In this document: positions 30,812 to 32,773 of the stretch, in pieces
How positions within the stretch are numbered: the stretch's first letter is position 1
How the letters are laid out: each line of letters begins with the position of its first letter
DNA from: Candidatus Latescibacterota bacterium
GTDB taxonomy: Bacteria; Latescibacterota; UBA2968
Assembly: GCA_038279365.1 (NCBI GenBank)
Contig: JAYODI010000068.1
Coordinates: 1 to 32,773, forward strand
Length of the DNA stretch: 32,773 bases
Direction: 5' to 3'
Translations under genes and position numbers: made by a program
Notes under the pieces: model-generated
Told to the model about the DNA's origin: nothing
Database searches by the model: none
Seen by the model: the letters and a program-made list of their open reading frames with translations, nothing else

Positions 30812-31018
30812 GTGGGTGTTGATAAGGTCGTTGAAAGGGGGCCTGAAGTGAGTTTGTGTCTAAAATGTCACTATGCGCGAACGATAAAAAATGTGCGCGG
30901 ATCGGTTTTCTTTTTATGCGAAAAATCGAAGGAAGATGCGCGGTTTATTAAATATCCAACGATGCCAGTCATTAAGTGTGGTGGGTATGAAGAAAGAAAT
31001 GACGGGGTAGATGGATAA
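30812..31018 (+). CDS. Small four-Cys protein, putative metal-binding
   Basis: 68 aa with 'CLKC..AR....RGSVF.LC......RF.KYP..PV..C.GYE'; start is uncertain. Confidence 0.6.
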   Translation: MGVDKVVERGPEVSLCLKCHYARTIKNVRGSVFFLCEKSKEDARFIKYPTMPVIKCGGYEERNDGVDG

Positions 31019-31098
31019 TTTGAGAAGGTCGGCCCCAATATTTGAGGTGCGACAAGTTGTCATATTTTTATGAAAATGCCTTTGACACAAATTTTATG

Positions 31099-31127
31099 GG
31101 AACTTTTGGACCTTTTTTATGGTCTAA
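31099..31127 (+). promoter_or_regulatory. RpoE (sigmaE)-type ECF promoter
   Basis: GGAACTT-16 bp-GTCTAA, a close match to the sigmaE consensus. Confidence 0.55.
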
Positions 31128-31220
31128 ATAAAAGTTTTATAGGAGATTCCAGAGAACGGGGTTATTTCATCGCAACTGGAAAATTTTTTAAATAATTGTG
31201 ATAAGTGTATGAAATACAAA

Positions 31221-31318
31221 TAAAAAAGTCGTTGATTACCTACCTTGGCGGGGACGGAATCAACGACTTTGGAGGGGTATATAAGGAGGCTTTGATGTCT
31301 CTTTACACGCCCGATAGT
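31221..31318 (-). ncRNA. Putative ~98-nt sRNA (repeat copy 1)
   Basis: Has its own TTGACA-17-TACTAT promoter; two hairpins; ends in a 13-bp stem with a U-tract; no conserved ORF. Confidence 0.6.
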
Positions 31319-31324
31319 TTTTTT

Positions 31325-31353
31325 ATAGTATCTATTCTAAAGGCTTATGTCAA
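31325..31353 (-). promoter_or_regulatory. Sigma70 promoter firing into repeat copy 1
   Basis: Minus-strand TTGACA (31353-31348), 17 bp, TACTAT (31330-31325). Confidence 0.7.
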
Positions 31354-31437
31354 GAAAAAAATAGATTAATAATTAATTTTTTACACACATTAAACCGAAC
31401 ATTTTTGTTTGTAAGTGGTTACTTTGTAGAAGGATTT

Positions 31438-31878
31438 ATGGTTAAGTTAAATCCGCAATGGGCAGAAACCTCAGAATCATTGTTTCAACGTAGCTTTGAA
31501 ACAGATGGTCGGCGTTTGCGTGAGCGTTATCTGGCATTGGCATTGATTGCTTCGGGGCGTAGCATTAAGCAGGTTGCAGCTCAGGTAGGAAAAAGGCGTC
31601 AAACAGTGGCAGAATGGGTGGATCGATATAATAAGTTGGGTATTGATGGACTCGAGCCAGAATTTAAGAGTAAGGCTGTTGCATCACTTTCTGAATCTGA
31701 ATTTGATATTTTAAAACAAACCTTGTGCGACCCGCCACATCTACATGGCATATCGAGTACCAGATGGCGCAGCCGTGATGTTGTTCAATATGTAAAGGAA
31801 AAGTTTCATAAACAAATTCATGCTGAAACTGCTCGAAGGTATTTAAATCGGTTAAATAAAAATGATCCAAGTAGGTAA
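31438..31878 (+). CDS. Stand-alone HTH protein resembling the IS630 transposase DNA-binding region
   Basis: 'RERYLAL.LIA.G.SI.QVA..VG..RQTV.EWV.RYN..GIDGL' plus 'P..HG....RW....V..Y....F......T.RRYL.RL'; AAGGA RBS; no DDE domain follows. Confidence 0.75.
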   Translation: MVKLNPQWAETSESLFQRSFETDGRRLRERYLALALIASGRSIKQVAAQVGKRRQTVAEWVDRYNKLGIDGLEPEFKSKAVASLSESEFDILKQTLCDPPHLHGISSTRWRSRDVVQYVKEKFHKQIHAETARRYLNRLNKNDPSR

Positions 31879-31911
31879 AAGGCCAGCCTCAATTTTGAGA
31901 TTGGCTTTTTT
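31877..31911 (+). terminator. Intrinsic terminator
   Basis: AAAAGGCCAGCCTC...GAGATTGGCTTTTTT directly after the stop codon. Confidence 0.7.
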
Positions 31912-32041
31912 AATGACAATTTTGGTAGATGTATATTATATAGGTTTGGTATGTATTTTTTAACGTGTTCTATTATGGGTCTTAAATGTTCGGTTTTTGA
32001 TGTGGATTTTTGTTTTTTTTGATTTTTGTCTTAAAATTGTG

Positions 32042-32071
32042 TTGACAGTCATAAGTTGACTGCTGTATATT
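32042..32071 (+). promoter_or_regulatory. Sigma70 promoter with an overlapping palindrome
   Basis: TTGACA-18 bp-TATATT; the spacer carries CAGTCA-N5-TGACTG (32046-32062). Confidence 0.5.
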
Positions 32072-32128
32072 TCTTGAACTCTGTATCTTCTTTTATTTTT
32101 TTATGAGTTGTAAATTTTATATGTTGTT

Positions 32129-32211
32129 TCGTAAGTAACCTACCTTGGCGGGGACGGAACTTACGATTTCGGAGGGATGTGTAAGGAGGCTTTGACGTCT
32201 CCTTACACGCC
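32129..32211. repeat. Structured repeat copy 2
   Basis: 32138-32211 is identical to 32304-32377 (74 nt); same 22-nt core as copy 1. Confidence 0.9.
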
Positions 32212-32294
32212 TAAATTTATTTAAATGTCGTTTTAATAATATGCCTTGTTTTGTTTTCATTGCCTGATGGTGATGGTTTGCAGGGATATGAAAG

Positions 32295-32387
32295 ATTGTA
32301 AGTACCTACCTTGGCGGGGACGGAACTTACGATTTCGGAGGGATGTGTAAGGAGGCTTTGACGTCTCCTTACACGCCCGTTTTTTTT
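32295..32387. repeat. Structured repeat copy 3, followed by a T-tract
   Basis: Direct repeat 166 nt downstream of copy 2; the second hairpin is followed by a run of T on the + strand. Confidence 0.9.
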
Positions 32388-32773
32388 CAACTAAGTATTA
32401 TGTTTACATGTATTGGTGATTAGACCTATGAATGTATTGTTCATATTGGTGAAATAATAAAAATAAAACAGCCTCCCAATCGTTAACCGTGCAAGGGATT
32501 TCGACTGGAAGGCTTCTTTGTGTTTTATCAATTCTAAAATCATTGCGTAGTGAGTTTAGAATTGAGATGGTTGTTCGTTCTTTTATCCACCGCATAATAA
32601 GTGCAAAATTAGTGCCATATTCAATTATGTGGCTTTGTCATATTTACAGTTCGATTTTAGTGTGTATTTAATGACAAATCGCCGTATTTGAAAAATGAGC
32701 AATGACAATCTGACATCGCAAGGAGGTGCCTGGAGAAATAACTTGAGAGCGGTTTTTGAAGTGAGTTTCCGAA

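Follow-up and report, generated by a model that had tools for sequence, protein, structure and literature searches.

The window analysed here is the whole of contig C52 (JAYODI010000068.1; 32,773 nucleotides, nt) of a Candidatus Latescibacterota bacterium genome, G000, which comprises 6.03 Mb in 199 contigs. Close to the end of the window lie three copies of a two-hairpin element, one upstream and two downstream of a stand-alone helix-turn-helix (HTH) gene, and behind them begins the leader of an outer-membrane protein gene (Table 1). A first-pass annotation, made from the letters alone, had described the copies as a family of sibling small RNAs (sRNAs) linked to the domesticated transposase DNA-binding domain encoded between them. 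The element is real, structured, restricted to one lineage, undescribed and present in RNA libraries; its partnership with the HTH gene is not supported, and its strand and mechanism we infer from sequence. Comparisons below refer in the first place to a sister genome of the same genus (G002, genus g1).

Table 1. Predicted features of the window and RNA-library contigs that match it
Feature	Position	Strand	Description
Copy 1	31218..31318	-	Predicted C-rich sRNA of ~100 nt, ends predicted from sequence; layout 5' to 3' on the minus strand: hairpin (reverse complement of 31274-31312), CCCCUCC linker, terminator hairpin 31225-31270 with loop UCCGUCCCCGCCAAGGUAGGU, U6
Sigma-70-type promoter of the copy-1 minus-strand RNA, predicted	31325..31353	-	TTGACA, 17 nt, TACTAT; score 10/12
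Stand-alone HTH gene	31438..31878	+	146 amino acids (aa), IS630-type N-terminal DNA-binding domain, no DDE domain
Sigma-70-type promoter of copies 2 and 3, predicted	32042..32071	+	TTGACA, 18 nt, TATATT; score 11/12
Copy 2	32129..32211	+	G-rich reading: P1 stem, core, GGAGGG linker, second hairpin, no U-run
Copy 3	32295..32387	+	G-rich reading; second hairpin 32344-32375 followed by T8 (32380-32387), a predicted intrinsic terminator
Candidate promoter and mRNA 5' end of the downstream outer-membrane gene	32403..32438	+	TTTACA, 18 nt, TATGAA; hexamers picked by eye and not called by the promoter scan
Terminator-like hairpin in the outer-membrane gene leader	32470..32526	+	AGCCUCCCAAUCG...CGACUGGAAGGCU, U-rich tail; conserved in G002
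Start of leader segment	32719..32773	+	Common to the ends of contigs C52, C140 and C49; leads to the Shine-Dalgarno (SD) sequence and TTG start of an OMP_b-brl gene (start seen in sister genomes)
Contig of run X6	32090-32283		Copy 2 and spacer
Contig of run X1	32095-32329		Copy 2 into copy 3
Contig of run X2	32270-32454		Copy 3 and beyond; one C>T difference
Contig of run X2	from 32438, past the window end		Downstream leader onward; 1255 nt, word depth 92
Contig of run X3	~31086-31301		Copy 1 and upstream flank
Contig of run X3	32305-32337		Part of a core; 502-nt contig, 3 differences

Structure and covariation of the element

What had been read from the letters about the repeats themselves is confirmed. 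Three direct repeats of about 90 nt (31225-31312, 32129-32211 and 32295-32379) are recovered both by alignment and by a repeat search of the window, which returned one family with three copies of 102 nt, 72-79% identical and spaced 900 and 166 nt apart. The same 22-nt core, ACCTACCTTGGCGGGGACGGAA, is found in all three, starting at 31238, 32138 and 32304, and it is enclosed by stems that vary in sequence and keep their pairing (AAAGTCGTTGATT/AATCAACGACTTT, TCGTAAGT/ACTTACGA and ATTGTAAGT/ACTTACGAT). The core stem is followed in each copy by a GGAGGG linker and a second hairpin, and 74 bases are identical between copies 2 and 3, which repeat at a period of 166 nt. When the 6.03-Mb genome was searched for the core with up to three mismatches, five matches were obtained, i.e. 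the three in the window and those on contigs C12 and C140; the core read backwards, which served as a control, had none, so the repeats go beyond chance. The fold of each window copy consists of two hairpins (z-scores of -3.8 to -5.0), and none of 200 dinucleotide shuffles folds as well. The module is thus a long hairpin, with a variable but paired stem and an almost fixed apical stretch of 16-22 nt, joined by a short linker to a second hairpin.

Compensatory changes in the stems, which the first-pass annotation had also claimed, stand up in larger alignments. In nine copies from three genomes, 7 of the 18 stem pairs have changed on both sides; 85% of the cells in this alignment pair, compared with 30-47% after a shift of the partner by 1-3 columns, and its covariation score was reached by 0 of 500 shuffles. 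With 22 distinct copies, in an alignment fitted to the model, double changes are seen in 8/18 pairs, and RNAalifold applied to 14 minus-strand sequences reports them in 11 of 20 pairs. Covariation was judged by these pair counts together with the shuffle and shift controls. The element is a structured RNA, with compensatory helix changes beyond what the controls produce. A covariance model, the construction of which had been suggested as a check, was built from the nine copies and finds eight places in G000: three in the window (copy 1 at 31223-31277, with 76-77 bits), one each on C140, C12 and C163, and two on C49 that are 171 nt apart.

The same data bear on the idea that the repeat functions as DNA rather than RNA, for example as the end of an insertion sequence (IS), a miniature inverted-repeat transposable element (MITE), a repetitive extragenic palindrome-like element or a recombination site. 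The inverted-repeat arms, the dispersal of copies in both orientations and the IS-derived gene nearby would all suit such an element. Its arms, however, vary and co-vary around an invariant interior, the opposite of what a MITE would show; G·U pairs are strand-specific; there are only eight copies in 6 Mb; conserved promoters and terminators flank the copies, and contigs from RNA libraries cover them (see below). A DNA-level repeat, for which target-site duplications had no systematic search, is extremely unlikely.

The annotation had not recognized any named RNA family, and none came to light in Rfam 15. Its 4227 models gave no match at gathering scores in the whole window, and the hits around the copies at E<=10 were at chance level only (DLEU2_4, RsaJ, and U6atac, whose 22.5 bits fall short of the gathering score of 33). 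Six other copy-bearing loci gave nothing relevant either, and no Qrr match among them. Full-text searches of the literature turned up no paper on a regulatory RNA of Latescibacterota. The RNA family is undescribed; the kind to which it would belong, base-pairing sRNA, is already known. The element also lacks the hallmark of a riboswitch or cis-acting leader, namely a fixed sense orientation in the 5' untranslated regions (UTRs) of related genes, because there are stand-alone copies with terminators (the C12 copy and copies 2-3), a copy in a 3' UTR (contig C99 of G002) and antisense copies, of the C49 type. A glutamine, guanidine or other nitrogen riboswitch, suggested by the urt context of one copy, was rejected on the lack of an Rfam match and on the mixed orientations, and a GGA decoy of the CsrA/RsmA type was rejected on the loss of GGA motifs in family f2.

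Strand, promoters and transcripts

Copy 1 is the orthologue of the single-copy form of other genera. The copy-1 type, as defined here, has 15 members, made up of copy 1, its G002 orthologue, the representatives in genus g5 and family f3, six loci of family f2 and one metagenome contig. On the basis of promoter, G·U pairs and U-runs, the strand most likely to be transcribed in this type is the minus strand, opposite to the one on which copy 1 had first been folded. The hexamers of the copy-1 promoter and their 17-nt spacing are kept in G002, where the spacer sequence differs. A minus-strand promoter that scores at least 10/12 and has TTGAC[AT] just past hairpin 2 was found in 12 of the 15 copies, compared with 48/2000 random 150-nt genome windows and 1/17 other copies; with this placement, the transcription start falls at the base of the second hairpin. 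On the far side of the element, A predominates in the 11 nt preceding the stem, so that the minus-strand RNA would end in a U-rich tail.

Wobble pairs point in the same direction. In the RNAalifold consensus of the 14 minus-strand copies, the 11 pairs of the terminator stem include eight G·U cells, one U·U and no A·C, and the 5' hairpin has 18 G·U versus five A·C cells; all these G·U cells would be mismatches on the plus strand. The minus strand folds better in 12 of the 14 copies outside the genus. Plus-strand promoters with a score of at least 10/12 within 150 nt upstream were seen only in g5 and before copy 2, so that within the copy-1 type there is none in f2, f3 or the metagenome copy, and on the plus strand no U-run follows hairpin 2 outside the genus. 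The ancestral gene was most likely a free-standing one, specifying a C-rich, minus-strand RNA of ~100 nt; within the window, such a transcript would extend from ~31318 to ~31218. This example calls for caution in reading structure from sequence only, as hairpins fold on both strands and the best-looking strand here is probably not the ancestral functional one.

In g5 (loci L024-L030), a conserved plus-strand promoter, TTGACA-17 nt-TATCTT, was noticed ~20-90 nt upstream of the element. It faces both the element and the minus-strand promoter, an arrangement that would make transcription convergent, and the stretch between promoter and element is rich in indels.

Copies 2 and 3, which occur in this genus only, are predicted to be read in the opposite sense. 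The promoter and terminator signals that had been reported at the ends of the array are indeed found there, as a plus-strand promoter with a score of 11/12 and as the second hairpin of copy 3 with its T8 (Table 1). Hexamers and spacing of this promoter are the same in G002, as is the T8 run of copy 3, and the promoter scan found no minus-strand promoter for either copy. At the level of motifs, therefore, the own promoter and terminator that define a base-pairing sRNA gene are present in the copy-1 type on the minus strand and in copies 2-3 on the plus strand. The spacer of the copy-2 promoter also contains a perfect palindrome, CAGTCA-N5-TGACTG (32046-32062), which is reduced to 4/6 in G002 and could be an operator.

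Other G-rich copies of the genus have sense orientation within their loci. The copy on C140 lies 65 nt behind a sigma-54-type site (TGGCATTGGATTTGCA), beside a divergent gene for an NtrC-family regulator (a sigma-54-dependent response regulator), and is followed by the outer-membrane leader shared with the window. The motif used for such sites, TGGCAC-N5-TTGCW, occurs 97 times in the whole genome, at no place upstream of copies 1-3. The C163 copy, likewise G-rich and sense, is located between a BBP2 porin gene and urtB in a urtA-porin-urtBCDE cluster; that on C12, of the same polarity, comes after a small open reading frame (ORF) and before a strong terminator. On C99 of G002, a sense copy is found in the 3' UTR of a response-regulator gene, directly behind its stop codon. 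Just upstream of the C163 copy, the sequence CUGAUGAGUGCCGGGUUUCCGGUCAGAAACGGUC, which resembles a hammerhead core, is conserved in three genomes (C163 ~2512-2551; L019 ~1461-1500). The hammerhead-like motif upstream of that copy, CUGAUGA...GAAAC, was set aside, as it has no Rfam hammerhead match.

The C49 type comprises five copies in three genomes. Their C-rich strand is sense to an operon of an OMP_b-brl gene and a CarboxypepD_reg gene, ~50-215 nt upstream of its start codon, and in one genome (G002) a TTGACA-17-AATAGT promoter is found just upstream. Linker, one stem arm and core are almost unchanged in these copies, and the 5' arm of P1 is missing. The tandem pair on C49, with its spacing of 171 nt on the C-rich side, recalls the pair of copies 2-3, spaced 166 nt on the G-rich side, and the two regions can be aligned in inverted orientation only, with 88-91% identity over 34 nt. 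An invertible segment or an inverted duplication of the tandem pairs was rejected, as the spacers have no homology and only the 34-nt element is matched. Across the three g1 genomes, 16 nt of the core are identical in 21/21 copies, two of which have a one-base change or deletion just before it. Some 60-90 nt upstream of the first C49-type copy, a further motif, AAAAAAG(G)TGTTGCATGG(C/T)(A/G)TTTTT, occurs in 3/3 genomes of the genus; it is located at C49 34450-34490, at L034 1410-1450 and, as reverse complement, in L035.

If all copies acted on the G-rich strand, they could be sibling sRNAs or cis leader modules whose apical loop binds one shared protein or small ligand, and the minus-strand promoter of copy 1 would be incidental or serve a local antisense brake only. 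Such a reading would accommodate an invariant core on varying stems, the U·G pairs of core and inner stem that occur on the plus strand alone (15 U·G and no A·C at the two inner pairs of the G-rich copies), an apical pair double-changed from C-G to U-A within g5, and the better fold of the plus strand in 9/9 genus copies; the plus-strand promoter and terminator of copies 2 and 3, the strong terminator at the C12 copy, and the sense orientation of the G-rich reading to the downstream gene in most loci are in line with it as well. It fits poorly with the C49-type copies, which in three genomes are antisense to the outer-membrane operon in this reading and lack the 5' arm of P1, and with the copy-1 type, where G·U pairs are confined to the minus strand, the minus-strand promoter is conserved, no U-run follows hairpin 2 outside the genus, and f2, f3 and the metagenome copy are devoid of a plus-strand promoter. 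Moreover, no riboswitch or protein-binding motif of Rfam matched. We regard this reading as unlikely. The label of siblings attached to the copies by the first-pass annotation is right inasmuch as they form a multicopy family; they are not all the same RNA, as some are the reverse complement of others relative to promoters and neighbouring genes.

RNA libraries were examined for presence of the region. Seven metatranscriptome runs each contained 7-13% of the sampled words of 31100-32500, and four of them were compared contig by contig. Transcription had been named as a point to check, and contigs of 185-235 nt from four RNA libraries, with 0-1 differences, do cover the copies (Table 1); the strand and ends of the transcripts are not given by them. 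In its flank, the 502-nt X3 contig is similar to the C12-type locus of genome G001, and the 1255-nt X2 contig runs through the leader hairpin at 32470-32526. Two contigs from different studies start only 5 nt apart (32090 and 32095), 12-17 nt past the predicted plus-strand start, which is no more than a weak hint. The region 31335-32086, with the HTH gene and its flanks, is covered by no contig in the four runs, which speaks neither for nor against its expression.

One of these contigs also touches on the possibility that the repeat is a small-peptide gene or resembles a type I toxin-antitoxin locus. Copy 1 contains AAGGAGG-CTTTG-ATG (31283-31297), which opens a frame of 24 codons, and in copy 3 the strain variant C>T at 32362, seen in a single RNA-library contig, turns ACG into ATG five bases past AAGGAGG. 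In the window itself, however, copies 2 and 3 have ACG at the start position; the frame of G002 has 6 or 19 codons and a different sequence; other genera have no start codon there, and it is the hairpin, not the frame, that is conserved. A coding function of this sort is barely credible.

Distribution and neighbouring genes

For wider searches, a second covariance model was built from 27 rows. The RNA family was found in 14/53 genomes of the order at E<=0.01, namely in 3/3 genomes of genus g1 (own genome included), 8/21 of genus g5 and 3/22 of family f2. At E<=0.001, 14 of 132 genomes of the class and 11 of 151 genomes in an even sample of the phylum had a match, and within the latter there was none in the 100 genomes of families f4-f14. 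These larger searches used stricter filters and scored a subset of candidates, so that weak copies may be missed. Outside g1 there is usually one copy per genome, with three in G047 and two in G029. A pattern scan of metagenomes for the P1 arms picked up 30 stretches, one of which (L079) is a true member according to the covariance model; the other 29 were discarded as chance. Among loci around relatives of the neighbouring MR_MLE gene, the RNA was seen in 1/25 (L089), where three scores are the same as in G002 and which was, for this reason, not counted as independent. Within the uncultured phylum Latescibacterota, the RNA is restricted to a few families. A Cys-rich ORF of 68 aa (30812-31018), zinc-ribbon-like by eye, is located between copy 1 and the MR_MLE gene; it has no Pfam match, and a part of it aligns to G002 at 81% DNA identity.

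The usual neighbours of the element are outer-membrane genes. G002 extends past the point at which C52 ends, and there copies 2 and 3 and the leader are followed by a gene starting MKMFKMLMLAVALLAAG...AQVTGKWGFGG. The full gene in G001 codes for an OMP_b-brl protein (29.1 bits, cut-off 28.7), and downstream of it is a CarboxypepD_reg gene, corresponding to a TonB-receptor N-terminus. In 7/7 genomes of genus g5, a gene of this type (OMP_b-brl match below cut-off) is found ~200 nt downstream of the single copy and is in turn followed by a CarboxypepD_reg gene. The genes downstream of the f2 and f3 copies code for TonB receptors with a Plug domain (L039, L043 and L040), for OMP_b-brl proteins (L041 and, below cut-off, L045) and for other secreted proteins (L038, L042 and L044). 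Altogether, outside the genus an outer-membrane beta-barrel or TonB-receptor gene is downstream of the RNA in 6/9 assessable lineages or loci. The genes that adjoin the RNA have strong AAGGAGG ribosome-binding sites.

Within G000, C52 and C140 share their last 55 bases (32719-32773 and 2053-2107, respectively), and C49 (~34821-34921), with one base different, reaches the SD and TTG start. The gene body of the outer-membrane protein had no match in the G000 bin when the G001 protein was used as a query, which shows absence from the bin only; several near-identical outer-membrane/TonB operons have probably collapsed in assembly. In the leader, the hairpin at 32470-32526 could be an attenuator. 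The leader also contains a perfect sigma-54-type site, TGGCACTAATTTTGCA, on the minus strand (32602-32617), which points leftwards to copy 3; it is one of the 97 in the genome, is not kept in the shorter G002 region and may be chance.

The HTH gene is what remains of an IS630 N-terminal domain. The product of ORF 31438-31878 matches Pfam HTH_32, HTH_29, HTH_23 and HTH_28 above their cut-offs and aligns to positions 2-108 of the 299 in the NCBIfam profile transpos_IS630 (72.8 bits, cut-off 100). The N-terminal HTH/winged-helix region of an IS630 transposase is thus present, and the DDE domain and the length of ~300 aa are not: no ORF of at least 40 aa follows on the strand before 32489. It is a single-copy gene in G000. 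A scan of genome contigs with the protein gave 93 pattern matches with no relative among them. The sole orthologue, 69% identical at the aa level, occupies the same position in G002, flanked by the same three RNA copies. For this pair of genes, the ratio of nonsynonymous to synonymous divergence (dN/dS) is ~0.11 (dS is close to saturation), which indicates that the gene is maintained. Elsewhere in the order, a search of the RNA-bearing genomes at E<=1e-5 gave either no homologues or genes that are 26-32% identical and far from the RNA, the nearest being 35 kb away in G018, where they are multi-copy.

It is on these data that a joint action of the three RNAs and the HTH protein, as modelled by the first-pass annotation, has to be judged. 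The position of the gene between copies in two genomes of the genus, the purifying selection on it and the palindrome in the spacer of the copy-2 promoter are compatible with a shared function. But in all RNA-bearing genomes outside the genus the RNA has no adjoining HTH gene, and homologues were either not found or are multi-copy, IS-like and at least 35 kb off; the five other copies in G000 have no HTH gene nearby; and the palindrome itself is only 4/6 in G002. A joint action is, accordingly, very unlikely. The co-occurrence that had been proposed as a check does not extend beyond the genus, where the RNA is directly beside outer-membrane or TonB-receptor genes, without the HTH gene. Of the proposed multicopy sRNA family linked to a domesticated transposase domain, the multicopy structured RNA stands, and the link is local to one genus. 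As judged from its distribution, the HTH gene lies outside the RNA family: it is an IS630-derived neighbour, conserved only within this genus.

A possible base-pairing circuit and related systems

We propose that the element belongs to a base-pairing (antisense) RNA circuit that tunes envelope and transport genes, to which we assign a probability of about 0.45. In it we infer the strands of the transcripts, the pairing between copies and the regulatory outcome. The ancestral sRNA would be transcribed from the minus strand under a sigma-70 promoter and would consist of a 5' hairpin, CCCCUCC, a terminator hairpin with the C-rich loop UCCGUCCCCGCCAAGG... and a U-run. The module has multiplied in this genus, giving C-rich copies in the leader of one outer-membrane paralogue and G-rich copies elsewhere, that is, copies 2-3 with their own promoter and terminator, a copy in the sigma-54-type leader of a second paralogue, one in the porin-urtB spacer and two in 3' UTRs. 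Between the G-rich copies and the C-rich RNAs, complementarity extends over 16-35 nt, and a C-rich sRNA or leader would pair with the G-rich copies loop to loop at first and then further, so that expression of envelope and transport genes would be tuned. A fixed loop on a variable stem is seen in RNAs of either polarity and, taken with the canonical sRNA layout of the ancestral gene, fits antisense recognition via loops.

In addition, the C-rich RNA might pair with ribosome-binding sites. Read from the alignments, anti-SD-like stretches (CCCCUCC, UCCCC, UCCUC and GCCUCCUUA) are present in its linker, loop and hairpin arm in every lineage, and with the AAGGAGG sites nearby they make direct occlusion of the ribosome-binding site a second possible mode. 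Taken alone, that mode would yield a classical anti-SD sRNA acting on envelope mRNAs, with the G-rich copies as by-products or simple sponges. The minus-strand gene signals across three families, the C/U-rich stretches in every lineage, the strong AAGGAGG sites of the neighbours and the location of the sRNA gene next to outer-membrane genes are in line with this reading. What it would leave unexplained is that the 16-nt core is the same in 21/21 copies although flanks have diverged beyond alignment, which points to selection on the G-rich copies too; also, promoter and terminator of copies 2-3 are kept between genomes, and the loop, which is the most conserved part, is not complementary to the ribosome-binding site. 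We consider it unlikely that only the C-rich RNA matters.

The base-pairing circuit may also be drawn more ambitiously. In that extended version, the element would be a portable sense/antisense unit, with C-rich sRNA and leaders against G-rich mirror copies, and the resulting RNA-RNA network would cross-regulate near-identical outer-membrane/TonB-receptor paralogues and tie them to nitrogen-related transport (the urt operon and the NtrC-type regulator). Expression of the paralogues could, for instance, be mutually exclusive, and the tandem pairs, with their spacings of 166 and 171 nt, would allow double kissing contacts. This we hold to be unlikely.

Several observations weigh against the base-pairing circuit as proposed. 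The plus strand folds better for all nine copies tested in the genus, in the case of copy 1 by 7.4 kcal/mol, so that copy 1 may also work on the plus strand or may have been homogenized with its neighbours, and the X3 contig over copy 1 runs ~130 nt past the predicted minus-strand terminator. The RNA-library contigs indicate presence only, neither strand, ends nor level, and could stem from DNA carry-over. In the outer part of P1 of the copies other than the copy-1 type, A·C cells exceed G·U on the plus strand (19 to 7), many of them from copies without the 5' arm. The sigma-54 site at C140 could be chance, at ~0.6% per copy with eight copies examined. Nor is complementarity strictly maintained: copy 1 of G002 is without one core base that all G-rich copies of that genome keep, and in G047 one or more core bases distinguish the promoter-less copy from those with a promoter. 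Finally, most genomes outside the genus are single-copy, and pairing in trans between copies cannot, therefore, be the ancestral function.

We know of no cultured member of Latescibacterota. These bacteria, as polymer degraders, rely on outer-membrane/TonB-receptor operons, and beside such operons there is now a concrete sRNA candidate with conserved promoter, terminator and structure. If the mirror copies do pair, a regulon would have been built by the spreading of a ready-made antisense target module, and there would be an RNA-level choice among near-identical outer-membrane paralogues.

Several known systems come close in function, none of them a relative according to the Rfam scans. Among these are MicF, which is encoded beside ompC, and OmrA/OmrB of enterobacteria, a pair of sibling sRNAs from adjacent genes by which outer-membrane proteins and TonB-dependent receptors are repressed. 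Like these, the RNA described here would be ~100 nt long, with its own promoter and intrinsic terminator, adjacent near-identical copies, a location by outer-membrane genes and presumed base pairing. It differs in having no sequence or structure match to them in Rfam, in occurring in another phylum, where its targets are only surmised, in the presence of copies in both orientations and inside mRNAs, and in that its conserved part is a hairpin loop rather than a 5' single-stranded seed. C-rich anti-SD sRNAs are known as RsaE/RoxS in Firmicutes and as the cia-dependent csRNAs of streptococci. With these, the minus-strand reading shares two hairpins, unpaired CCCCUCC, UCCCC and CCUCCUUA complementary to ribosome-binding sites, and multi-copy siblings; no homology was found by Rfam, the longest conserved stretch here (CCGCCAAGG) is not anti-SD, and this genus has G-rich mirror copies as well.

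Qrr sRNAs of Vibrio are sigma-54-dependent siblings encoded next to LuxO, an NtrC-type regulator, and the C140 copy, as a member of a sibling family behind a sigma-54-type site and beside a divergent sigma-54-dependent regulator, is reminiscent of them; yet only one copy has this arrangement, it has no Rfam Qrr match, and it is probably part of an outer-membrane leader, not a free sRNA. In mode of recognition, the module resembles the countertranscript antisense RNAs, such as CopA/CopT of plasmid R1 and RNA-OUT/RNA-IN of IS10, with complementary loops on stable stems, a design that explains a fixed loop with a stem that is free to vary. Those, too, are antisense RNAs of ~70-100 nt with a promoter in or beside the controlled leader and a stem-loop terminator. 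The module described here, in contrast, is chromosomal and beside envelope genes, has a plus-strand promoter through the element only in g5, and is the only one with dispersed mirror copies in unrelated mRNAs. If confirmed, the use of mirror-image copies placed in leaders, in spacers and in 3' UTRs would make the family an unusual variant of base-pairing sRNA.

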